In this document: positions 3,273 through 62,265 of the stretch, in pieces
How positions within the stretch are numbered: position 1 is the first letter of the stretch
Layout of the letters: the number at the start of each line of letters is the position of its first letter
From: Escherichia phage FL23
Sequence record: PP400787
Length of the DNA: 64,000 nucleotides
Strand: one strand, 5' to 3'
The notes under the pieces: model-generated
What the model saw: only the letters and a program-made list of their open reading frames with translations
Told to the model about the DNA's origin: nothing
Database searches by the model: none
Program-made: the position numbers and the translations under genes

Positions 3273-3300
3273 AGGGAGCCTTCGGGCTCCCTTTTTTATT
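3273..3300 (+). terminator. rho-independent terminator (GC hairpin with UUCG loop plus T-run)
   Basis: agggagccTTCGggctccc followed by ttttttattt. Confidence 0.65.
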
Positions 3301-3303
3301 TCA

Positions 3304-3385
3304 AAAATTTTTCACAAAACTGTTTACAAGCATAAAGCTTTATGGTACTATACAACTATCAACTGATACGGATTTGGAGAATAAA
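3304..3385 (+). repeat. early promoter plus conserved leader cassette, copy 1
   Basis: aaaattttttcacaaaactGTTTAC...tggTACTATacaactatcaactgatacggatttGGAGaataaa; near-identical copies at 31884, 58641, 62275 and variants at 5458, 59148, 50480. Confidence 0.6.
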
Positions 3386-4354
3386 ATGAAAACTGTAACT
3401 ATCAATAAGGGTATCTACTTCGGTAAAGAAATCTCTGGAACTTTTGAGCTCTTAGGCGAATGGTTCCCAGATAATGCTCCGGTAGATGCACAAGGAGATG
3501 GTAAAGTTTTTGTTGAAATTGACGGTAAACGTCGCGGTGTTTGGGTTTACAAATCAGACATTTCATATGATGGTGTAAAAGTTGAAGAAGTTAAAGAATC
3601 ATATGAAGATATGAAAACCCGCATTAATAAAAGATTTAATGTTATGGGAATGATGACGAATGGTATTATTAACGGAAACATTCGTTCATTAATTATCTCT
3701 GGTGCGGCGGGTATTGGTAAAACGTATTCTTTAGATAAAGCTTTGAATAAAGCAAATGATAATGGATACATTGAGTATAAAAGCATTAATGGTAAAATCT
3801 CTGGTATCGGTCTTTATGAACAGCTTTGGAATAATCGTGAAGAGAATTCTGTCCTTTTGATTGATGATGTGGATGTTTTCTCTGATATGGACATTCTTAA
3901 TCTTCTGAAAGCTGCTCTGGACACTGGAGAGACCCGTAAAGTCTGCTGGAGCACTGCATCTTCTTACTTAGAAGAAAAAGGCATTGAGCGTGAGTTTGAA
4001 TTTAAAGGAACGATTGTTTTTATCACAAACGTTGACATTGACCGCGAATTAGACCGTGGTACTAAACTTGCTCCACATTTACAAGCATTAGTGTCCCGCT
4101 CAGTTTATTTAGATTTGGGTGTTCACACTAATGAAGAAATTATGGTCAGGGTTGAAGATGTTATTCTTTCAACTGACATGATGCAAAAGCGCGGTCTTTC
4201 TGATGAAGAAACTTATAAAGCATTATCATGGATGAAAGTCAATGTTAATCGTTTACGCAATGTTTCACTGCGTACTGCTCTTTATCTTGCTGACTTTATT
4301 ATGACCGACAAAAACCATTGGGAAGAAATCGCTGAAACGGTATTATTAAAATGA
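3386..4354 (+). CDS. AAA+/P-loop ATPase (323 aa)
   Basis: Walker A GAAGIGKT, Walker B VLLIDDVD; ATG 6 nt after GGAG of the conserved leader. Confidence 0.6.
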   Translation: MKTVTINKGIYFGKEISGTFELLGEWFPDNAPVDAQGDGKVFVEIDGKRRGVWVYKSDISYDGVKVEEVKESYEDMKTRINKRFNVMGMMTNGIINGNIRSLIISGAAGIGKTYSLDKALNKANDNGYIEYKSINGKISGIGLYEQLWNNREENSVLLIDDVDVFSDMDILNLLKAALDTGETRKVCWSTASSYLEEKGIEREFEFKGTIVFITNVDIDRELDRGTKLAPHLQALVSRSVYLDLGVHTNEEIMVRVEDVILSTDMMQKRGLSDEETYKALSWMKVNVNRLRNVSLRTALYLADFIMTDKNHWEEIAETVLLK

Positions 4355-5070
4355 AAAAATATTTTACTATCTATAAAACTGAAATATTAAATTTAAAGAC
4401 AGGTATTAAGAAATACTATTATGGTCGACATATAACTAATAATACCAATGATTCGTATGTTGGTAGTGGAAATTATATAGAACGTGTAAAAGTGTCAAAT
4501 GACCACATATTATCAAAAACGGTTTTAGAAGTTTTTGATAATTATGATAAAATGGTACAAGCTGAAATATTATATATCATGGCAGGTAAATTGAAATATG
4601 GGAAAAACTGTGTTAACCTGTCATACGGGGGTGAAGGAGGAAAGGTTGCAGATGAAACTAGGATAAAATGCAAAAAGCATTCTATAAATTTATGGAAAAA
4701 TCCTAATCATATACAGCATATGAAGAAAAAGATGAAAGAGGTCACATCCACGCCGGAAGCTAAATTAAACACTTCAATAAAAACTTCGCAACGATATAAG
4801 GACCCGGTTTTTGTTAGAAAAGTTAGTAATATTATTAAAAAGAAACTAAGCAATCCTGCAGTAAAAGAAAAGCATATTAATGGAATTAAAGCTGCAAAGC
4901 GTTCTCATTTAACTATATGGCAGTATGAAGATGAATTATTCGAGCTCTGGAAAGAAACTAAATGTGGATGGAGAAAATTTACAAAGGAAGCTATAAAACA
5001 CGGATATCCAAATGAACCGTATCGTAGTATGGTATCAACTTTTCAGAAAAGACATTTAGAAGAATCCTAA
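4351..5070 (+). CDS. free-standing GIY-YIG homing endonuclease (Seg-like)
   Basis: N-terminal IYKTEILNLKTGIKKYYYGRH ... YVGSG module shared with the segF-like ORF at 40822; K/N-rich C-terminal DNA-binding repeats; ATGA overlap with upstream gene. Confidence 0.6.
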   Translation: MKKYFTIYKTEILNLKTGIKKYYYGRHITNNTNDSYVGSGNYIERVKVSNDHILSKTVLEVFDNYDKMVQAEILYIMAGKLKYGKNCVNLSYGGEGGKVADETRIKCKKHSINLWKNPNHIQHMKKKMKEVTSTPEAKLNTSIKTSQRYKDPVFVRKVSNIIKKKLSNPAVKEKHINGIKAAKRSHLTIWQYEDELFELWKETKCGWRKFTKEAIKHGYPNEPYRSMVSTFQKRHLEES

Positions 5071-5140
5071 GACAAAAAGGCAGTTCAGAAATAGATTATA
5101 TGGACTGCCATCAAAAAGATGACTAGAATTAAACTGGTAA

Positions 5141-5455
5141 ATGGAGGTAATGATGTTATACTCAAAGGCTCGTGAAATTTACGAAACTAAAATTAAAGAA
5201 GCAGTATTTAAGTTCGCAACGACAATGCGATGGACAAATGACTGGGAGTATTCAAAAAATCATAAGAAGCCCATGGTGACAAGAAAGGCTCATATGTTAG
5301 TGTTAATAGACCGTGAGCAGATTAAAGCCCGAGAAGCCCTCCAGAATCATAAAAAGGCTGCCTTTGAATGGTTTATGGATAACACTGCTCCTGAGACTAA
5401 GAAAGCAGTGAGTGCATGGTTCAGTGGAAAAAATTGTGAAAGAAGTTTCTTTTAG
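5141..5455 (+). CDS. hypothetical protein (104 aa)
   Basis: ORF track only. Confidence 0.4.
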   Translation: MEVMMLYSKAREIYETKIKEAVFKFATTMRWTNDWEYSKNHKKPMVTRKAHMLVLIDREQIKAREALQNHKKAAFEWFMDNTAPETKKAVSAWFSGKNCERSFF

Positions 5456-5457
5456 TG

Positions 5458-5515
5458 GTTTACAAGACTGTTCCTCTGTGGTACTATACAACTATCAACT
5501 ACGGAGGAACAGAAA
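5458..5515 (+). repeat. early promoter/leader cassette, variant class (identical to copy at 59148)
   Basis: GTTTACaagactgttcctctgtggTACTATacaactatcaactacGGAGGaacagaaa-ATG; arms ctgttcctc/gaggaacag are inverted repeats. Confidence 0.6.
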
Positions 5516-6043
5516 ATGAACGCTAAAGATATTTTCAACCTGGTAAATTACAACGATGGTAAATTTAAATCTGAAGCACAAAGCAAGTTCTTTAATGACA
5601 TCTCAATCGGAGGTGAAATCACGGTTGATGGAGGACAAATTTACAAATCCCGTTGGAATTGGATCGTTATTATCGATGAGATTGGTATTGTAGAAATTTA
5701 CAAGAATACGAATAAAAATCGTACATTACACTGGTCTCGTGATACTAACGAACAATACAAAAAGGATAAAGCATCTAAATTATCTCGTGTAACTCAAGAA
5801 GATATTGAGTTCATCAAGAAAGATATTTTGATGTATGATAACTTAATTGCTGAAGAGCAAGCTGTTATTGATAAATTTGATGAGATTAAAGCTTCTCGTG
5901 AAATTCCTGATTTTATGAAAGAATCAGTAAATGAACGATACACTCTCATTTCAGAGCGTATCGAAACTTACAAAAAGCAAAGAGCTGAACGCCAAAATAC
6001 TCTTCGGAAGTTTGAAGAACGGTTAAAGACGGTACTCGCATAA
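5516..6043 (+). CDS. hypothetical protein (175 aa)
   Basis: ORF track; ATG directly after cassette SD. Confidence 0.5.
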   Translation: MNAKDIFNLVNYNDGKFKSEAQSKFFNDISIGGEITVDGGQIYKSRWNWIVIIDEIGIVEIYKNTNKNRTLHWSRDTNEQYKKDKASKLSRVTQEDIEFIKKDILMYDNLIAEEQAVIDKFDEIKASREIPDFMKESVNERYTLISERIETYKKQRAERQNTLRKFEERLKTVLA

Positions 6044-6098
6044 CCGCTTTATACCAAGGATGGTATAATGGTTCTAAGCCCTTTTAATTGAGATTATT

Positions 6099-6332
6099 AT
6101 GAAACGGTTGATAATTAAAAGATTGAATTTATTGATATGTTGTTTATGTGTAGTAGTTGCATATGGTTATTACGCAATTAATGATTATATGCACTATAAA
6201 GATTATGATGTTACTGTAGTTAATACCCTTACAGGAACTCAAGGAAAGGGGTCTAGTTTATTGCTGTATATGAACTCAAAGACGGTTATAGATTTAGCGA
6301 ATATATTTCACCGGAGATGTATTCTTCAATAG
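6099..6332 (+). CDS. small hydrophobic protein (77 aa)
   Basis: ORF track; N-terminal hydrophobic segment LNLLICCLCVVVAYGYYAI. Confidence 0.4.
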   Translation: MKRLIIKRLNLLICCLCVVVAYGYYAINDYMHYKDYDVTVVNTLTGTQGKGSSLLLYMNSKTVIDLANIFHRRCILQ

Positions 6333-6499
6333 AAAAAGGTGATAATATTACTGTAAGTTTACGTCCTTTCGACGTAAAACAGACATGGTTTGATAATATT
6401 GTTTGGTTCTTTGGAATGGTATTAGTTCAATCTGTGTGTGGTGCTTATATAGTCTGTTCTATCTTATTCTGTATATTTAGTAAAATTGAAATTGAGTGA
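6317..6499 (+). CDS. small hydrophobic protein (60 aa)
   Basis: ORF track; C-terminal hydrophobic segment. Confidence 0.3.
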   Translation: MYSSIEKGDNITVSLRPFDVKQTWFDNIVWFFGMVLVQSVCGAYIVCSILFCIFSKIEIE

Positions 6500-6506
6500 G
6501 GAAAAT

Positions 6507-7394
6507 ATGTCAGTAGTAATTAATAATGTCAATGCAGTAATTAAATCTTTAGTTAATAAAAAATTGAATGAATGGACTGTACTTTGTCGTGGAGAGCCAG
6601 ATAAATTTTTTCATAGATTTAACCCAACTTTGGATTTGAATGTTATTGACAGAGATGTTCATGCCAAAATTTTAGATAAATTTAAAGTTGATATTGGATT
6701 TGGATTAGAAAAACATTTACAGCGAACAAACGGGTCTGGAATGAGTTTATCTAATCGCATTATGAAAGCCCTTAATAAAATTGGAGCGTTGTCTCGTATT
6801 AATGCGAGTGAAATTCTTCGTAATTATAATAAAGGATATGACCTTTATGGTCGACTAATGCCGAAGTTATCATTTGACCAAATGATTGCAGATTTGTGGG
6901 AAAATCAGCGACGATTATTAGCATTAGGCGCTCGATTGGCTAAAGGTCTAGATAAACAAATGATTTTTAAGACCAATAATACAGAAGACCTTAAATGCTT
7001 TAAATTTAGTATTCGCGGAGATGATTATTACATCAGAGCTCACTCTACAGATTATGTTAATATGGGGCATCATCTCTGTTTAGCTTTTGAAGTTTTAAAA
7101 GAAGCTGGAACATTAGAATATACGTCTGGTGCTAAATGCCCGATTGGTTCAAATTGTATTTTGATTTATCGCCCGGATGAATCCAGTTCAACTAAATTGC
7201 CTACGAAACCTGTACCAGTTCGTAGTAATGAAAAACATTCTGAACAAATTGATTATTTTAATAAACAGATTGAAGAGCTGAATATTTCTATTCAACAATA
7301 TGATGATGAAATTTTCAGACTATCTGGATTGAGTAGTAAAGCTAAATCTGAGCGTGAAAAGTTAATTAAAATTGTTGATTTACTTAAATCTTAA
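6507..7394 (+). CDS. hypothetical protein with C-terminal coiled coil, tandem paralog 1 of 4
   Basis: ATG after GAGG; central RRLLALGARLAKG-type motif and heptad-like C-terminal tail shared with next three genes. Confidence 0.5.
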   Translation: MSVVINNVNAVIKSLVNKKLNEWTVLCRGEPDKFFHRFNPTLDLNVIDRDVHAKILDKFKVDIGFGLEKHLQRTNGSGMSLSNRIMKALNKIGALSRINASEILRNYNKGYDLYGRLMPKLSFDQMIADLWENQRRLLALGARLAKGLDKQMIFKTNNTEDLKCFKFSIRGDDYYIRAHSTDYVNMGHHLCLAFEVLKEAGTLEYTSGAKCPIGSNCILIYRPDESSSTKLPTKPVPVRSNEKHSEQIDYFNKQIEELNISIQQYDDEIFRLSGLSSKAKSEREKLIKIVDLLKS

Positions 7395-7402
7395 GGAACA
7401 CC

Positions 7403-8431
7403 ATGAAAACTCGTTCTCAAATTGAAGATATGGTTCGTACTGCCAGCGATACTCGTAATGTTATGACATTTTTGTGTGAAAATAATTTAGACCCTGATAA
7501 AGTTAATCGTGCTATTCATCACTTTAAATATCTAAATAGCAGTGAATGGTTACGTCATTTTAGTAAAGCGGGGTATATTACACAAATGACTGCTCGTGAG
7601 CAGCTCACCGATTTCTGTAAAACTATTGATTATAAAAATCCTCTATTTGTTCAAGGCGTTGGTCAAAGTAAGGTCGATTTATCATCTGGATTTTTCAATC
7701 CAAATCATTATCGTATTGAATGGAGATTTATTGCTCTGTTCCGTAGACAATTAAAGCAAATTTTATCAACTGCGAGTCGATTGAAAGGTTCTGATATTAA
7801 CTTAAAGAACCTGAAATTTGATGGTTATACTCTTCAGATGGAAGTAAGACCATTAAAAGAAAATAACAGAACTGCACGAATTAGCTTTAAACCTAATACA
7901 AAAAATTCTCTTTCAATTTGCGAATGCCTTAAATCGCAGTTGACAGAAGCATTTAAGTATATGGACGTTGTTGCTGCTGTCCAGTCTAAGATTTTACCTC
8001 GTTTTGAGCGATTTAAATTAGACACAACAACATATGAACTTGATATGATCGTTTCATTTAAATACGATTTTTTGAGAAAGGACGAAGTCACGCAAGAGAA
8101 AAAGCAAGAAGTGCAAGATAACTTAAATTTAAATTTATCCAATTACTCATCAAACGATCCTAAATTTTGGATGTATAGTTCAGGTAATAAGGATGCATGG
8201 AAATTCAATAAAGTGAATTTTCTTCCTGTTGAAAATCCGAGTCTTAAACCTGTTGAAAAATGGCATGCCGATGCGATTGAGAAGTCTATCAAGGCAGTAG
8301 ATGATGAACTCGTTAAAGCAACTAATGAAGTGCTAGAAGCTGAAAAGATGCTAGAAAAAGCTCAAGAAAAAGTCAAAAATCTTACGAAGCAACGTTCTAA
8401 ACTGAACAATGCACTAAATGCACTAAACTAG
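7403..8431 (+). CDS. hypothetical protein with C-terminal coiled coil, tandem paralog 2 of 4
   Basis: ORF track; motif RRQLKQILSTASRLKG; coiled-coil tail. Confidence 0.5.
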   Translation: MKTRSQIEDMVRTASDTRNVMTFLCENNLDPDKVNRAIHHFKYLNSSEWLRHFSKAGYITQMTAREQLTDFCKTIDYKNPLFVQGVGQSKVDLSSGFFNPNHYRIEWRFIALFRRQLKQILSTASRLKGSDINLKNLKFDGYTLQMEVRPLKENNRTARISFKPNTKNSLSICECLKSQLTEAFKYMDVVAAVQSKILPRFERFKLDTTTYELDMIVSFKYDFLRKDEVTQEKKQEVQDNLNLNLSNYSSNDPKFWMYSSGNKDAWKFNKVNFLPVENPSLKPVEKWHADAIEKSIKAVDDELVKATNEVLEAEKMLEKAQEKVKNLTKQRSKLNNALNALN

Positions 8432-8460
8432 TTTACTTTTCCACAAGGATGTGGTATAAT
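8431..8460 (+). promoter_or_regulatory. T4-type early promoter
   Basis: GTTTAC-ttttccacaaggatgtgg-TATAAT; same element upstream of rIIA.1 at 54166. Confidence 0.55.
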
Positions 8461-11784: not shown

Positions 11785-12270
11785 ATGATTACAGTAGATA
11801 AGTGGTTTAGAATTAATCGTGCTGATACAGGGCTATGTAATTACTGGCCGGAACTTAGTGCAGGTACTGTCTTTAAAGTTCGTGAACTTGCAAAAGAATG
11901 TGAAGATGATATAGAACCTGATACTGGAATTATTGAAATTGAACTTTCTGATGGAAAGATTATTAATATCTACGATAAGCCAATTACGTATTGGTGTTTG
12001 TGGAATACTGAATCAGTCGAAAATGGCGAAATTGAAGAAGTTGTAGAGCGAACTAATCAAGTTGTTCAGAAGCCTAAAGCTGGTTTTCAAGGTGAACGTA
12101 TTTCATACGCGTTAGCTAAATTAGCTGCACAAGAAAATAACGATGGCTATGAAGGAAATTTAATGCAAGCTGCCGCAGAGTACATTGAATGGCTTGAAAC
12201 TCAAATTTCTTTTTCTGACCGAATGATTCAGCAATATAAGCGATTGCATCAAATGTTTTACAATACTTGA
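11785..12270 (+). CDS. pin: protease inhibitor PinA-like (161 aa)
   Basis: Position between nrdC and gene 49 and length equal to T4 Pin when started at the internal ATG; sequence identity not verified. Confidence 0.6.
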   Translation: MITVDKWFRINRADTGLCNYWPELSAGTVFKVRELAKECEDDIEPDTGIIEIELSDGKIINIYDKPITYWCLWNTESVENGEIEEVVERTNQVVQKPKAGFQGERISYALAKLAAQENNDGYEGNLMQAAAEYIEWLETQISFSDRMIQQYKRLHQMFYNT

Positions 12271-12282
12271 AAATAATAAATA

Positions 12283-12311
12283 CCCTTATCTATTTAAGGT
12301 AAGGGTTTATT
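12283..12311 (+). terminator. probable rho-independent terminator
   Basis: accctta...taagggt hairpin followed by TTTATT. Confidence 0.4.
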
Positions 12312-12785
12312 ATGTTATTGACTGGCAAATTATATAAAGAAGAAAAACAAAAATTTTATAATGCACAAAACGGTAAATGCTTAATTTGCCAACGAGAACT
12401 AAATCCTGATGTTCAAGCTAATCATCTTGATCATGACCATGAATTAAATGGACCAAAAGCAGGAAAGGTACGTGGATTGCTTTGTAATCTTTGCAATGCT
12501 GCAGAAGGTCAAATGAAGCACAAATTTAATCGTTCTGGCTTAAAGGGACAAGGTGTTGATTATCTTGAATGGTTAGAAAATTTACTTACTTACTTAAAAT
12601 CCGATTACACCCAAAATAATATTCACCCTAACTTTGTTGGAGATAAATCAAAGGAATTTTCTCGTTTAGGAAAAGAGGAAATGATGGCTGAGATGCTTCA
12701 AAGAGGATTTGAATATAATGAATCTGACACCAAAACACAGTTAATAGCTTCATTTAAGAAGCAGCTTAGAAAGAGTTTAAAATGA
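12312..12785 (+). CDS. 49: endonuclease VII (Holliday-junction resolvase)
   Basis: 157 aa; Cys-rich CLICQ ... HLDHDHE ... CNLCN zinc site; matches recalled T4 gp49. Confidence 0.85.
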   Translation: MLLTGKLYKEEKQKFYNAQNGKCLICQRELNPDVQANHLDHDHELNGPKAGKVRGLLCNLCNAAEGQMKHKFNRSGLKGQGVDYLEWLENLLTYLKSDYTQNNIHPNFVGDKSKEFSRLGKEEMMAEMLQRGFEYNESDTKTQLIASFKKQLRKSLK

Positions 12786-18338: not shown

Positions 18339-18539
18339 ATGAATCCTGAATCTAAATTATCGCAGCGAATTGCCGAAGCTCGTCGTCAGTTCTTTGAAAA
18401 TATGATAGCCCAAGGTATTGATGACGAAGTTTTTCTAAACTGGTTTTGGAACCACAAATATTCAAGTTGCTCAGGAGCAATATTATTATCAGCCGCAATG
18501 ATGTATGAAGGCTGGAAGGGTGCCAAAAAGTTTAGCTAA
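18339..18539 (+). CDS. hypothetical protein (66 aa)
   Basis: ORF track; followed by terminator. Confidence 0.4.
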   Translation: MNPESKLSQRIAEARRQFFENMIAQGIDDEVFLNWFWNHKYSSCSGAILLSAAMMYEGWKGAKKFS

Positions 18540-20930: not shown

Positions 20931-22133
20931 ATGAAAGTATGTATTTTTATGGCTCGAGGTCTTGAAGGTTGTGGTGTAACTAAATTTTCTCTTGAGCAAC
21001 GTGATTGGTTTATTAAAAATGGTCATGAAGTAACTTTGGTTTATGCTAAAGATAAATCATTTACTCGTAATTGCGCGCATGATTATAAATCATTTTCAAT
21101 TCCGGTTTTATTGGCAAAAGAATACGATAAAACACTTAAGCTGGTAAATGATTGTGATATTCTAATTATCAATTCAGTTCCTGCTACTTCGGTTGAAGAA
21201 GACACTATTAATAACTATAAAAAAATTATTGATAACATTAAACCTTCTGTTCGTGTTGTAGTTTATCAGCATGACCATTCTTCTCTTTCTTTGCGTCGAA
21301 ATTTGGGATTAGAAGAAACTGTTCGTCGAGCTGATGTTATTTTTAGCCATTCTGATAATGGCGATTTTAATAAAGTTCTGATGAAAGAATGGTATCCAGA
21401 AACTGTTTCTCTGTTTGATGATATTGAAGAAGCACCGACAGTATATAACTTTCAGCCTCCTATGGATATTGCGAAGGTTCGGTCAACTTACTGGAAAGAT
21501 GTTTCTGAAATTAACATGAATATCAACCGTTGGATTGGTCGTACGACTACATGGAAAGGTTTTTATCAGATGTTTGATTTTCACGAAAAACATCTTAAAC
21601 CTGCAGGACTAAGTACTATTATGGAAGGTCTGGAACGTTCTCCAGCGTTCATTCCTATTAAAGAAAAAGGAATTCCATACGAGTATTATCGTCTTCATCA
21701 AGTAGACCAAATTAAAATTGCTCCTAATTTGCCAACGCAAATTCTTGACCGTTATGTAAATAGCGAAATGCTTGAACGCATGAGTAAATCCGGATTTGGT
21801 TATCAGTTGAGTAAGTTGGATAAAAAATATCTGCAACGTTCTTTAGAATATACTCATCTCGAGCTTGGTGCTTGCGGTACAATTCCTGTTTTCTGGAAAT
21901 CTACTGGCGAAAATTTAAAATTCCGTGTTGATAATACTCCTTTGACCTCGCATGATAGCGGTATCATTTGGTTTGATGAAAATGATATGGAATCAACGTT
22001 TGAACGTATTAAAGAACTGTCATCTGACCGAACTCTTTATGACCGTGAGCGAGAAAAAGCATATGAATTTTTGTATCAGCATCAAGATTCAAGCTTCTGC
22101 TTTAAAGAACAGTTTGACATTATTACAAAATAA
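20931..22133 (+). CDS. agt: DNA alpha-glucosyltransferase
   Basis: 400 aa; MKVCIFMARGLEGCGVTKFSLEQRDWFIKNGHEVTLVYAK closely matches recalled T4 AGT. Confidence 0.85.
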   Translation: MKVCIFMARGLEGCGVTKFSLEQRDWFIKNGHEVTLVYAKDKSFTRNCAHDYKSFSIPVLLAKEYDKTLKLVNDCDILIINSVPATSVEEDTINNYKKIIDNIKPSVRVVVYQHDHSSLSLRRNLGLEETVRRADVIFSHSDNGDFNKVLMKEWYPETVSLFDDIEEAPTVYNFQPPMDIAKVRSTYWKDVSEINMNINRWIGRTTTWKGFYQMFDFHEKHLKPAGLSTIMEGLERSPAFIPIKEKGIPYEYYRLHQVDQIKIAPNLPTQILDRYVNSEMLERMSKSGFGYQLSKLDKKYLQRSLEYTHLELGACGTIPVFWKSTGENLKFRVDNTPLTSHDSGIIWFDENDMESTFERIKELSSDRTLYDREREKAYEFLYQHQDSSFCFKEQFDIITK

Positions 22134-31883: not shown

Positions 31884-31965
31884 AAATTTTTTCACAAAAC
31901 TGTTTACATCCTTGTTCTTCCATGGTACTATACAACTATCAACTGATACGGATTTGGAGAATGAA
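31884..31965 (+). repeat. early promoter plus conserved leader cassette, copy 2
   Basis: Same aaaattttttcacaaaactGTTTAC ... ggtactatacaactatcaactgatacggatttggaga block as 3304-3385. Confidence 0.6.
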
Positions 31966-32346
31966 ATGAAAATCGCTATTTTGGTTATTGCATTAGGTCT
32001 TACTGGTTGTGTATCTCAAGGACCGGTAGTAAATCAGTCTGATGTAGGAAAAATTGTAAACTGTTCAAGCAAATTTTATAATCCTAATGTCAAGTGTTAT
32101 AAAGAAGCTCCAAAACAGACAGTAGAACAAATGCAGGCGAATTTTGACGAAGCTATTCGTCCAGATGAATCTGCTCAAGCATATCGTAATTCGGATGTAA
32201 TTACACGCGAAGAAAAAATTGAAAATTACTGCGCCGTGCTTTGGGCAAATTGGGCTAATAATTACCAGTTGCGTACTGGTAAAAATGCTCCAATGGAGTA
32301 TGTAGTGAATTCTTATAATTCATGCGTAAAAAATTTAACTAAGTGA
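31966..32346 (+). CDS. predicted lipoprotein (126 aa; T4 imm.1 position)
   Basis: Signal peptide with lipobox LTGC (MKIAILVIALGLTGCVSQG). Confidence 0.6.
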   Translation: MKIAILVIALGLTGCVSQGPVVNQSDVGKIVNCSSKFYNPNVKCYKEAPKQTVEQMQANFDEAIRPDESAQAYRNSDVITREEKIENYCAVLWANWANNYQLRTGKNAPMEYVVNSYNSCVKNLTK

Positions 32347-41808: not shown

Positions 41809-41873
41809 ATTTAAATGGTTTACTTTCCAAAATGAGTATGGTATAATAGAATTATCTTATAGAGGAGAGCACT

Positions 41874-48882: not shown

Positions 48883-48945
48883 AAAGTTGTTTACTTCCTC
48901 GGTTAGTTGTGGTATTATAACACCATAGCTACTGAGGATAATAAA

Positions 48946-49446
48946 ATGAAAATTTATCGTGTTGAATCATCTTTTAGTATTCTTAATTATGAAGATGCTA
49001 TAACAATACGTCGAAATCTTTGTGTTCAAATAACGCCGTACAGGAGTATAATAGATTCATGGAGCGAAGAGTGGTTATTACACGTAGGTTATGATAGACC
49101 TAATTTTATGCATCATAGCGATAATAATAAAAGAATTCCTTTACCACACGAAGATAAACTATTAGTTAAAAACGCTAATATAGTAATTAATACTAAGTTC
49201 AAGAAAGATTATGTTGGAGTAGAATATCATATTCCCGGATGGTTTATAGGTCTTTATCATTTTGCTTTCGCTAGTGAATATGATATGATGAGATGGTTCA
49301 CACGAGAAGAGCGTGAAGAATTAGCTTCTAAAGGATTTTATCTTGCTGTATACGAAGTTCCTGAAGATGAAGTTATCATTGGCGGGCACCAAGTAATGTT
49401 CCGCAAATCGCATGCTGAATTAAAAGGCTTTATTACCTTAGATTAA
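48946..49446 (+). CDS. hypothetical protein (166 aa; motB position)
   Basis: Internal ATG after early promoter at ~48888; synteny only. Confidence 0.4.
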   Translation: MKIYRVESSFSILNYEDAITIRRNLCVQITPYRSIIDSWSEEWLLHVGYDRPNFMHHSDNNKRIPLPHEDKLLVKNANIVINTKFKKDYVGVEYHIPGWFIGLYHFAFASEYDMMRWFTREEREELASKGFYLAVYEVPEDEVIIGGHQVMFRKSHAELKGFITLD

Positions 49447-50462: not shown

Positions 50463-50558
50463 AGTTTAAATTTTTTCATAAAACTATATACATCAGTAGT
50501 TGATTATGGTACTATATCAATATCAACTACTGATACAGAAAACAACTTGGAGAATAAA

Positions 50559-52348: not shown

Positions 52349-54166
52349 ATGATTAAGAATGAAATTAAAATTCTGAGCGATATTGAACATATCAAAAAGC
52401 GTAGCGGCATGTATATTGGCTCTTCTGCTAATGAAATGCATGAGCGCTTTCTGTTTGGTAAATGGGAAAGTGTTCAGTATGTACCTGGTCTTGTTAAGCT
52501 TATTGATGAAATTATCGATAACTCAGTAGATGAAGGTATTCGTACTAAGTTTAAATTCGCGAATAAAATTAATGTTACTATTAAAAACAATCAAGTAACA
52601 GTTGAAGATAACGGTCGTGGTATTCCACAGGCGATGGTTAAAACACCTACCGGTGAAGAAATTCCTGGTCCTGTTGCTGCATGGACTATTCCAAAAGCAG
52701 GTGGTAACTTCGGTGATGACAAAGAACGCGTCACTGGCGGTATGAACGGTGTTGGTTCTAGTTTAACTAACATTTTTTCTGTGATGTTTGTCGGTGAAAC
52801 TGGCGACGGTCAAAATAATATTGTAGTTCGTTGTTCAAACGGCATGGAAAATAAATCATGGGAAACTATTCCTGGAAAATGGAAAGGAACTCGCGTTACT
52901 TTCATTCCTGATTTTATGTCATTTGAAACTAATGAGCTATCTCAAGTTTATCTTGACATTACACTAGATCGTCTCCAGACACTTGCAGTAGTTTATCCTG
53001 ATATTCAATTTACCTTTAATGGTAAAAAGGTTCAGGGCAATTTTAAGAAGTATGCACGCCAGTATGATGAGCATGCTATCGTTCAAGAACAGGAAAATTG
53101 CTCTATTGCGGTTGGTCGTTCACCGGATGGTTTTCGTCAATTAACATACGTCAATAACATTCATACTAAGAATGGTGGTCATCACATTGACTGTGTTATG
53201 GATGATATTTGTGAAGACCTTATTCCACAAATCAAACGTAAATTTAAAATTGATGTAACTAAAGCACGCGTTAAAGAATGTTTGACTATCGTCATGTTTG
53301 TTCGTGATATGAAAAACATGCGATTTGATTCTCAAACTAAAGAGCGTTTGACTTCTCCATTTGGTGAAATTCGTAGTCATATTCAGCTTGATGCTAAAAA
53401 GATTTCACGTGCTATTTTAAATAATGAAGCAATTTTAATGCCAATTATTGAAGCTGCTTTGGCTCGTAAATTGGCGGCAGAAAAAGCAGCAGAAACTAAA
53501 GCAGCTAAAAAGGCTTCTAAAGCTAAGGTTCATAAACATATTAAAGCGAATCTTTGTGGTAAAGATGCTGACACTACTCTTTTCTTGACTGAGGGTGATT
53601 CCGCTATCGGATATCTTATTGATGTTCGTGATAAAGAACTTCATGGTGGTTATCCATTACGTGGTAAAGTTCTCAACAGTTGGGGTATGTCATATGCTGA
53701 TATGCTTAAAAACAAAGAACTGTTTGATATTTGCGCAATCACTGGATTGGTTCTTGGTGAAAAAGCTGAAAACTTAAATTATCATAATATTGCAATTATG
53801 ACCGATGCTGACCATGATGGTCTAGGAAGCATTTATCCTTCTCTGCTCGGATTTTTCAGTAATTGGCCAGAACTGTTTGAACAAGGAAGAATTCGCTTTG
53901 TCAAAACTCCTGTAATCATCGCTCAGGTCGGTAAAAAACAAGAATGGTTTTATACAGTCGCTGAATATGAGAGTGCTAAAGATGCTCTACCTAAACATAG
54001 CATCCGTTATATTAAGGGACTTGGCTCTTTGGAAAAATCTGAATATCGTGAGATGATTCAAAATCCAGTATATGATGTTGTTAAACTTCCTGAGAATTGG
54101 AAAGAGCTTTTTGAAATGCTCATGGGAGATAATGCTGACCTTCGTAAAGAATGGATGAGCCAGTAG
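52349..54166 (+). CDS. 39: type II DNA topoisomerase large (GyrB-like ATPase) subunit gp39, unsplit form
   Basis: 605 aa single ORF (GHKL ATPase plus Toprim); T4 splits this into genes 39 and 60, here no gene 60. Confidence 0.9.
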   Translation: MIKNEIKILSDIEHIKKRSGMYIGSSANEMHERFLFGKWESVQYVPGLVKLIDEIIDNSVDEGIRTKFKFANKINVTIKNNQVTVEDNGRGIPQAMVKTPTGEEIPGPVAAWTIPKAGGNFGDDKERVTGGMNGVGSSLTNIFSVMFVGETGDGQNNIVVRCSNGMENKSWETIPGKWKGTRVTFIPDFMSFETNELSQVYLDITLDRLQTLAVVYPDIQFTFNGKKVQGNFKKYARQYDEHAIVQEQENCSIAVGRSPDGFRQLTYVNNIHTKNGGHHIDCVMDDICEDLIPQIKRKFKIDVTKARVKECLTIVMFVRDMKNMRFDSQTKERLTSPFGEIRSHIQLDAKKISRAILNNEAILMPIIEAALARKLAAEKAAETKAAKKASKAKVHKHIKANLCGKDADTTLFLTEGDSAIGYLIDVRDKELHGGYPLRGKVLNSWGMSYADMLKNKELFDICAITGLVLGEKAENLNYHNIAIMTDADHDGLGSIYPSLLGFFSNWPELFEQGRIRFVKTPVIIAQVGKKQEWFYTVAEYESAKDALPKHSIRYIKGLGSLEKSEYREMIQNPVYDVVKLPENWKELFEMLMGDNADLRKEWMSQ

Positions 54167-54195
54167 TTTACTTTACCACAAGGATGTGGTATAAT
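54166..54195 (+). promoter_or_regulatory. T4-type early promoter
   Basis: GTTTAC-tttaccacaaggatgtgg-TATAAT. Confidence 0.55.
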
Positions 54196-58153: not shown

Positions 58154-58643
58154 TTTGACTAGTGAAATGAAGGTCAAAATTGCTGATACAGCAAGATACT
58201 CTTTAAAACAAAACCCAAACCAGGATAAAGCAGAAGTCATTGAAAGATGTCGTATCGCTGTGTACGCAGAATTTTTTGTAGCAGATTGGCTGAGCGGGTA
58301 TGTTAACAAAGGCCAAGAGGATGTTAATGACCCATATACATATGCGTGGGATGTATTGGCGCATCCAAGATATTGCGGGCTTCGTGTAGAAGTCAAAACA
58401 CACCAAACTGACTCACGTTGGATTTCTGTAACAACAGGATGCAGCGGAGAGTATCCATACGGTTCTGGAATAAATCTAGGGCCCATTCTGAATCATCAGG
58501 TCGCTGACTGTATAATTATATTCAACACTAAAGAAATTCATCCAGGTGTCATCCAGTACACTCCGAAGTTCATCGGTGATAGAGAAGACCTTCGTAAGGT
58601 TGTAAGAAAAAGCAACTACAACGGATGGTATCTTTCCATTTAA
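58086..58643 (+). CDS. denB: endonuclease IV (DenB)-like
   Basis: 185 aa, same length and position (between rIIB and ndd) as T4 DenB; overlaps previous ORF by 68 nt so start is uncertain. Confidence 0.55.
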   Translation: MQKTNPGLQRLFQIPTFTLSNNDLTSEMKVKIADTARYSLKQNPNQDKAEVIERCRIAVYAEFFVADWLSGYVNKGQEDVNDPYTYAWDVLAHPRYCGLRVEVKTHQTDSRWISVTTGCSGEYPYGSGINLGPILNHQVADCIIIFNTKEIHPGVIQYTPKFIGDREDLRKVVRKSNYNGWYLSI

Positions 58644-58723
58644 AAATTTTCACAAAACGGTTTACATACCACAAGGACTGTGGTACTATACAACTATCAA
58701 CTGATACGGATTTGGAGAACAAA
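58641..58723 (+). repeat. early promoter plus conserved leader cassette, copy 3
   Basis: GTTTACataccacaaggactgtggTACTATacaactatcaactgatacggatttggagaacaaa. Confidence 0.6.
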
Positions 58724-58930
58724 ATGTTTACTACAGCTGAATTAAAACGAGCAAAAGCTAAGAAAGGGCAAGGAAAATATAAAGCTGAATTAGTTAAAGA
58801 ACTTCAGTTTGCTGAGGCTGAATTGAATTCAATGATTATTCAAAATGCTCCAGAAGCTGAAATCGCTCTTAAACGTATTGCGAATAAGTGTCTTCGTGAT
58901 GCAATCGTCGATCTTTTAGCGGATTATTGA
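58724..58930 (+). CDS. hypothetical protein (68 aa)
   Basis: ATG after cassette SD. Confidence 0.45.
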   Translation: MFTTAELKRAKAKKGQGKYKAELVKELQFAEAELNSMIIQNAPEAEIALKRIANKCLRDAIVDLLADY

Positions 58931-59147: not shown

Positions 59148-59205
59148 GTTTACAAGACTGTTCCTCTGTGGTACTATACAACTATCAACTACGGAGGAAC
59201 AGAAA
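59148..59205 (+). repeat. early promoter/leader cassette, variant class (identical to 5458-5515)
   Basis: 58-nt block identical to copy at 5458. Confidence 0.6.
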
Positions 59206-59319
59206 ATGAAAAAGATTGTTAAAGCTATATGGAATGTAGTTATAATATTAGTAGTTTTGAGTATATTCCCAATCGTTTTAATGATTGATGTATTAAACGC
59301 TTACTTTGGATTTATGTGA
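59206..59319 (+). CDS. membrane micro-protein (37 aa)
   Basis: MKKIVKAIWNVVIILVVLSIFPIVLMIDVLNAYFGFM. Confidence 0.4.
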   Translation: MKKIVKAIWNVVIILVVLSIFPIVLMIDVLNAYFGFM

Positions 59320-62235: not shown

Positions 62236-62265
62236 TAGGGAGAGCCTCGGCTCTCCCTTTTTTAT
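62236..62265 (+). terminator. rho-independent terminator
   Basis: gggagagccTCGGctctccc followed by TTTTTTATTTT. Confidence 0.65.

Follow-up and report, generated by a model that had tools for sequence, protein, structure and literature searches.

Two loci in the genome of Escherichia phage FL23 carry the same short promoter and leader, and at both of them the segment between the -35 and -10 elements is complementary to the Shine-Dalgarno (SD) region of the gene that follows. This raises the question of whether translation of these genes depends on the promoter from which their mRNA was started. An earlier note on this DNA proposed that transcripts entering from upstream hide the ribosome-binding site (RBS) in a hairpin, while transcripts of the local promoter leave it free. 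In this work, we follow up this proposal in the whole 64,000-nt stretch analysed (record PP400787, hereafter the window), in related phages, and by comparison with known systems of T4.

Two identical cassettes

The source phage of the window is a Tequatrovirus. Positions 4500-7500 are 100% identical to Escherichia phage FL44 and about 97% identical to RB32, T6, and AR1, and the strand of early transcription in T4 corresponds to the + strand of the window. As the earlier note had stated, the two copies match at 58 of 58 positions (5458-5515 and 59148-59205); there is no further site with three or fewer mismatches, and 100 shuffles gave a chance expectation of 0 matches. The extent of the identity had been underestimated, however: reading of the flanks showed that it covers 63 nt and continues through ATGAA, being limited by the region of the upstream stop codon on one side and by codon 2 on the other. 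Copy 1 occupies the 60-nt gap between nrdC.9 (5141-5455) and nrdC.8. Both reading frames that had been named as following the copies, ORF 5516 and a 37-aa micro-ORF, begin where expected, at 5516 (NrdC.8) and 59206 (Ndd.4). In Pfam, NrdC.8 and Ndd.4 are without any family, and DUF7203 is the only match of NrdC.9. The coordinates of all these features are collected in Table 1.

Table 1. Positions of the cassettes, their elements, and neighbouring features in the window
Feature	Position	Strand	Remarks
Copy 1 cassette	5458..5520	+	nrdC.9 stop to nrdC.8 codon 2; identical to 59148-59210
Copy 1 promoter	5459..5487	+	early-type sigma70; TTTACA-17-TACTAT; TGg extended -10 at 5479-5481; -10 at 5482-5487
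Copy 1, 5' arm	5468..5482	+	CTGTTCCTCTGTGGT; promoter spacer, TGg, first -10 base
Copy 1, 3' arm	5498..5512	+	ACTACGGAGGAACAG; SD GGAGG at 5503-5507, 8 nt before ATG 5516
nrdC.8 ORF	5516..6043	+	175 aa
Copy 2 cassette	59148..59210	+	between ndd.5 and ndd.4
Copy 2 elements	-35 59149-59154; -10 59172-59177; 5' arm 59158-59172; 3' arm 59188-59202; SD 59193-59197		
ndd.4 micro-ORF	59206..59319	+	37 aa; predicted inner-membrane protein in T4 annotation
Upstream early promoter, nrdC.10	3322..3351	+	'early promoter 54.4' of U76612; likely read-through source for copy 1
Upstream early promoter	58660..58689	+	likely read-through source for copy 2
Third member, dexA-motB.2	48889..48948	+	non-identical; promoter GTTTAC-N18-TATTAT

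Several observations concern the reading frames around the copies. In T4, ndd.4 is annotated as 42 aa, from an upstream ATG supplied by the variant ACTAtGG within the 3' arm. The window (59188-59206, compared with T4 locus L003, 4765-4750) has ACTAcGG at this place and retains only the 37-aa start, which has a proper SD; the start annotated in T4 is probably too far upstream. A 239-aa ORF at 4351-5070, between nrdC.10 and nrdC.9, is missing from that position in T4 (U76612). It is annotated as a seg-like or homing endonuclease in RB32, AR1, and others, and no Pfam match was obtained for it at E<=0.01. An antisense ORF over copy 1 (5491-5303, TTG start) was considered as a reason for the anti-SD sequence and rejected, because TTG 5491 lies upstream of that strand's only SD-like GAGGAA.

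Promoters and likely sources of read-through RNA

A promoter scan found TTTACA-17-TACTAT with TG before the -10 at both copies. The -35 (GTTTAC) and the extended -10 belong to the early class, and the late-promoter motif TATAAATA is absent from the cassette promoter. The +1 of the copy 1 promoter is predicted near 5494. At the orthologous nrdC.9-nrdC.8 junction, -35/-10 signals are annotated in the T4 record U76612, and a 'predicted early promoter' is annotated in fPS-90. The -10 and the initial transcribed sequence of copy 1 also occur in 'early promoter 54.4', and the cassettes are members of a larger T4 early-promoter family with TGGTACTATACAACTATCAACT in common, to which that promoter belongs. 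Since early promoters lie upstream of both copies (Table 1) and a scan of the + strand detected no terminator-like site from 3322 to copy 1 or from 58660 to copy 2, read-through RNA is expected across both cassettes.

The hairpin and its predicted folds

The spacer segment ctgttcctc had been described as the reverse complement of gaggaacag. The complementarity is confirmed, but its length of 9 nt is not, as the stem comprises 15 bp. In copy 1 RNA, CUGUUCCUCUGUGGU (5468-5482) pairs with ACUACGGAGGAACAG (5498-5512) through 13 Watson-Crick and 2 G-U pairs, closing a 15-nt loop that carries most of the -10 together with the predicted +1. The stability of this stem is about -23 to -25 kcal/mol. For a segment of 73 nt, the predicted fold has -25.5 kcal/mol (z = -6.1), a stability that 0/200 shuffles equal, and the stem is retained in 141-nt contexts at both loci. 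A search of Rfam yielded no match that reached the gathering threshold anywhere in the window, and within 5380-5600 there was none at E<=1.

RNA folding agrees with the claim that the SD is paired in read-through RNA and free in promoter-initiated RNA. In the predicted fold of spacer-containing RNA, the probability that GGAGG is unpaired is about 0, compared with 0.58-0.89 (MFE 0) in RNA that starts at the predicted +1. The interpretation given in the earlier note is thus supported in all its computable parts, at the level of modelled structures. The upstream genes' stop codons lie 13 nt (copy 1) and 18 nt (copy 2) ahead of the 5' arm; given the usual ribosome footprint, a terminating ribosome would at these distances not reach the arm or only just touch it, and terminating ribosomes should therefore leave the stem unmelted.

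The window contains other promoter-associated and terminator-like hairpins. At the early-type promoter 50486-50533, the spacer TCAGTAGTTGAT and the leader ATCAACTACTGA that follows it form 13 bp (-20.2 kcal/mol, z = -5.3); this hairpin spans the -10 and +1, and the SD near 50551 is free, so that the RBS is untouched. An early-promoter subfamily, TAGTTTACTTT.CCACAAGGATGTGGTATAAT, found at 8429-8460, 54164-54195, and 41816-41847, has a 5-7-bp palindrome, CCACA..TGTGG, lying wholly within the spacer. Repeated GGGCTTCGGCCC terminator-like hairpins with UUCG tetraloops occur at 22127, 26837, 29007, 52274, and 57784, and also at 18526 and 57549.

Conservation of spacer-to-SD stems

Stems that join the promoter spacer to the SD, with differing arms, were found upstream of ndd.4, nrdC.8, and motB.2 in three to five genera, and the register of orthologous stems also varies between genera. 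At ndd.4, the arms are CUGUUCUUCCGUGGU/ACUAUGGAGGAACAG in T4, CAUCUCCAUUAG/CUAAUGGAGAUG (also CATCTCCATTAG/CTAATGGAGATG) in JS98, CATCTCCATTA/TAATGGAGATG in IME08, CAUCUCCAGUGGUUG/CAACUACUGGAGAUG (also CATCTCCAGTGGTTG/CAACTACTGGAGATG) in Gaprivervirus MN01, and UUCUCCGUUAG/CUAACGGAGAA (also TTCTCCGTTAG/CTAACGGAGAA) in Karamvirus EnA02. Kosakonia phage 305 has only TCCATT/AATGGA at this locus, a weak stem (p = 0.36). At nrdC.8, Dhakavirus arms are AUCUCCAGUAG/CUACUGGAGGU (also ATCTCC(G/A)GTAG/CTACTGGAGGT). The strong Mosigvirus stem at this gene, GGUCUAU/AUAGACC, covers the -10 only and leaves the SD outside. A weak outer helix in the same leader, CUUUUAGU/ACUGGAGG, contains three G-U pairs and might reach the SD; it was given no weight.

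The third member of the group, located between dexA and motB.2, came from a scan of every early-type promoter in the window. Its stem, 48896-48913 / 48922-48938 (UCCUCGGU.AGUUGUGGU / ACCAUAGCUACUGAGGA), covers the SD and folds at -23.7 kcal/mol (z = -4.7). The design is kept in Dhakavirus (UUCUCCUCAUG/CAUGAGGAGAA; TTCTCCTCATG/CATGAGGAGAA) and in Mosigvirus (UUCUCCUCUGGUU/AACCAGAGGAGAA; TTCTCCTCTGGTT/AACCAGAGGAGAA), with compensatory changes in both. A perfect 14-bp spacer-SD stem, TTCTCCAGTAGTTG/CAACTACTGGAGAA, was also noticed in two further loci (L044, 165-222, and L051) ahead of a 105-aa ORF (MKTIDCKAEFKIFYHG...) that has no homologue in the window; this would be a fourth gene with the spacer-SD design.

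Duplexes between each spacer and its own leader reach -16 to -26 kcal/mol, compared with about -6 +/- 2.3 kcal/mol for shuffled spacers, and in 9 of 12 orthologues the own duplex is better than composition-preserving spacer shuffles at p<=0.0005. The best leader for each spacer is its own, with one exception that involves two types with the same arms, and partner swaps between types cost 5-15 kcal/mol. This comparison of own and swapped duplex energies constitutes the between-type evidence. When sequences were aligned across genera with MAFFT, the arms did not fall into a common register, because the anti-SD segment adjoins the -10 in Tequatrovirus cassettes but the -35 in those of the Dhakavirus type. 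For this reason, the column-wise count of covariation was restricted to the Dhakavirus type. There, 82% of cells pair, compared with 26-56% when partners are slid. In the gap-free alignment of the Dhakavirus/Gaprivervirus type, two pairs are altered on both sides (GC<->UA in 4 sequences, AU<->UA in 1), counts that rest on few independent events, as the sequences are few and closely related within each genus.

Where pairs inside the stems depart from Watson-Crick pairing, they are G-U on the sense strand, and the sense RNA consequently exceeds the antisense RNA in stability, by up to 9.5 kcal/mol, in 10 of the 12 sequences. Such imperfections favour a constraint acting at the RNA level over one acting at the DNA level. 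Judged from these comparisons, the hairpin looks to be under selection, although the Kosakonia ndd.4 stem and the Mosigvirus nrdC.8 stem speak against it.

Exchange between cassettes

The identity of the two copies might be taken as a fixed design, but related genomes contradict this. The two copies of T4 itself differ from each other. In its nrdC.8 cassette, ..GACCGTTCCTCTGTGG..CGGAGGAACAC.., the two outer stem pairs are broken without compensation, and the T4 ndd.4 cassette reads ..GACTGTTCTTCCGTGGTACTATTACCC..ATGGAGGAACAG... Phage e11/2 has the ndd.4 type at its nrdC.8 locus, while the ndd.4 locus of the window and that of one IMG/VR locus (L014) are of the nrdC.8 type, and another locus (L011) carries a mosaic cassette. 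At ndd.4, the junction found in the window is matched at >=99% by about 14 of 565 public phage records, and 433 match it at 90-95%. Identical copies are thus a minority state that derives from recombination. From this comparison, we infer that the 63-nt identity arose when paralogous cassettes exchanged sequence by short-patch recombination or gene conversion. Such exchange has been described for the promoter-early stem-loop (PeSL) cassettes of T4-like phages (Arbiol et al. 2010, PMC2839356; Comeau et al. 2014, PMC4122927), and PeSL-mediated exchange has been proposed at ndd.4/ndd.5 in particular (PMC4122927).

A scan of IMG/VR with the -35 and -10 as anchors returned only 11 loci. In three loci (L004, L006, and L008), the class-2 spacer of the window is joined to a non-complementary class 1 leader; pairing between spacer and leader is therefore not obligatory. 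The spacer in question is AAGACTGTTCTTCCATGG, and the chimeras imply crossovers in the common GGTACTATACAACTATCAACT core. Class 1 cassettes are also present in the window itself, at 3304-3388, 31884-31968, and 58642-58726, where they have the -10, leader, SD, and ATG in common (..TATCAACTGATACGGATTTGGAGAATAAAATG). The nrdC.8 junction of JS98 (L065) is composed of a 5' half of the ndd.4 type and a 3' half of the nrdC.8 type, which gives rise to a U x C mismatch in mid-stem.

Proposed mechanism and alternative explanations

The best explanation of these observations, and one that we regard as fairly probable, is a PeSL-type early cassette whose RBS-hiding hairpin ties the ORF to its own promoter. 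Each copy is a T4-type early promoter/leader cassette, and its -35/-10 spacer would double as an anti-SD strand. RNA arriving from upstream promoters would contain both arms and form the 15-bp hairpin that buries GGAGG, and nrdC.8 or ndd.4 would then stay untranslated on it. RNA started at the cassette's own promoter, with its +1 in the loop, would lack the 5' arm, and its RBS would be free. Expression of the ORF would in this way be bound to the immediate-early transcripts that its own early promoter yields, and shielded from read-through transcription, both from upstream and later. Both the translational block and the insulating role are what the modelled folds suggest, and any gain from limiting NrdC.8 and Ndd.4 to own-promoter transcripts is speculative. 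Protection of the buried GGAG from RegB cleavage would be a likely side effect, and an untranslated ORF on read-through RNA could invite Rho-dependent polarity. In T4, the GGAG of nrdC.8 is 'moderately' cut by RegB in vivo (PMC1702504), which indicates that this leader is expressed early and is at least partly accessible.

RegB also provides an alternative in which the main selected function of the hairpin is RNA stability: burial of GGAG would spare polycistronic read-through mRNA from cleavage by RegB or other RNases, while own-promoter transcripts would be RegB-sensitive and short-lived. GGAG in early SDs is a target of RegB cleavage, which secondary structure inhibits, the nrdC.8 site is cleaved only to the moderate degree mentioned above, and RegB cleaves just two GGAU sites, that of motB.2 being one (PMC1702504); the near-zero unpaired probability of the SD in long RNA fits this reading as well. 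However, C residues 3' of GGAG reduce cleavage (PMC1702504) and explain the moderate cutting at nrdC.8 equally well, and protection is compatible with translational sequestration, as one helix does both. We consider stability unlikely to be the main function. It is less likely still that the stem-loop is a terminator or attenuator of upstream transcription, as proposed for PeSLs generally, and that its overlap with the SD is incidental. Arbiol et al. did show terminator-like activity for one RB49/phi1 PeSL stem-loop, with attenuation proposed as its role, and other promoters of the window have G+C-rich UUCG hairpins with T-runs just upstream (3273-3292 and 62237-62258). In the cassettes, by contrast, no U-tract lies 3' of the 3' arm (AAAAUGAA; post-stem sequence AAAATGAA), the 15-nt loop is long, and the terminator scan was silent at both copies, all of which makes intrinsic termination unlikely there. 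Termination also does not predict that the 3' arm should coincide with the SD at each of three loci and across several genera despite changes in arm sequence and register.

The position of the 3' arm is likewise left without a reason if the inverted repeat is a palindrome of the DNA that plays no part as RNA, being a recombination hotspot or a product of quasi-palindrome templated mutation kept for cassette shuffling. The clear signs of exchange between cassettes speak for such a palindrome, as do the small spacer palindromes of many other early promoters in the window (CCACAAGGATGTGG, CATAAAGCTTTATG) and the speculation of the PeSL authors that stem-loops may be recombination targets. The internal mismatches, on the other hand, are G-T on the sense strand only, hence G-U in RNA. 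A loop of 15-23 nt, moreover, disfavours cruciform extrusion, and we find a purely DNA-level role quite improbable. Chance complementarity between pyrimidine-rich early spacers and purine-rich SDs, multiplied when a single cassette was duplicated, is the least plausible explanation and, in our opinion, a highly improbable one. Several T4 early spacers do start with TTTCC or TTCC, and the Tequatrovirus copies are paralogous and hence not independent. Yet composition-preserving spacer shuffles never match the observed duplex energy (p<=0.0005), most other TTCC-rich spacers of the window reach only -2 to -10 kcal/mol, and differing arms and registers recur in other genera and at motB.2.

Possible significance

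If the hairpin acts as modelled, it adds an early-promoter version to the classic T4 rule that an RBS is freed when the promoter lies within its hairpin, and it would give PeSL stem-loops a concrete, testable function other than termination. It also suggests how T4-like phages hold small accessory genes under autonomous control in long, overlapping early units. The use of the spacer as an anti-SD strand is a compact design that could serve context-independent expression cassettes. The broader picture of T4 gene regulation is unchanged by this finding.

A wider generalisation is possible, and we put it forward tentatively: self-insulating early-gene cassettes may form a conserved class in T4-like phages. 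The spacer would be the anti-SD strand and, whatever the site at which a cassette lands, its ORF would be translated from its own promoter alone. If such a class exists, some PeSL stem-loops would be translational insulators, possibly also RegB shields, rather than terminators, and this would explain how ORFan cassettes are shuffled between transcription units without mis-expression.

Comparison with known systems

Considered as promoter cassettes, the two copies are PeSLs. Both copies fit the sigma70-like promoter consensus given for PeSLs of the T4/PST pair, TTTACW-N17-TAYWAT (PMC4122927). They resemble PeSLs further in the stable stem-loop tied to the promoter and in the SD and ATG of the downstream gene placed at the 3' end. 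PeSLs are intergenic, adjoin small ORFans in hyperplastic regions, and undergo recombination between copies, ndd.4/ndd.5 being among the examples (PMC2839356, PMC4122927); the ORFan context of the window cassettes, with the apparent reciprocal transfer of alleles and the mosaics between nrdC.8 and ndd.4, is similar. The AT-rich upstream region of PeSLs may be represented by AATATTTTTAAAAAAGTT at copy 2 and, at copy 1, by the 3' end of nrdC.9, AAGTTTCTTTTAGTG, which is AT-rich but coding. The stem-loops differ in position. Published PeSL stem-loops lie upstream of the -35/-10, overlap them or lie between them, or occur just before the +1, and are read as terminators or attenuators; those of PST/T4 are drawn 'just upstream of the promoter'. 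In the window, by contrast, the arms flank the -10 and +1, the SD itself serves as the 3' arm, and a U-tract is missing; the spacer-to-SD position falls outside the five published subclasses. A full-text search of the two PeSL papers found no mention of SD pairing.

Hairpins that occlude the RBS and limit translation of read-through RNA are known from free-standing homing endonuclease genes, Aeh1 mobE and T4 segB (review PMC3014915). Unlike the stems described here, they are not part of a repeated promoter cassette and are not common to several loci. In the literature searched, from which the main T4 genome review was missing, no description of an early-promoter variant of the RBS hairpin was found. 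The cassette type and the control logic are each known in T4; it is their combination that appears to be undescribed.

The control logic itself is that of the T4 genes e, soc, 49, and I-TevI, in which the SD and/or AUG are paired in long transcripts (PMC3014915; McPheeters et al. 1986), and a promoter in or beside the 5' arm yields transcripts without this arm, which are translated (PMC3014915). The leader of gene 49, a published paradigm, served as a positive control within the window: at 12270-12314, a hairpin buries its SD and AUG, and a late-promoter-like AATAAATA lies in the 5' arm. The cassettes share with these genes an SD that is predicted to be paired in long RNA and an internal promoter with its predicted +1 in the loop. 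The difference lies in the class of promoter: in e, soc, 49, and I-TevI it is late (gp55, TATAAATA) and forms an early-off/late-on switch, whereas in the cassettes of the window it is of the early sigma70 type.
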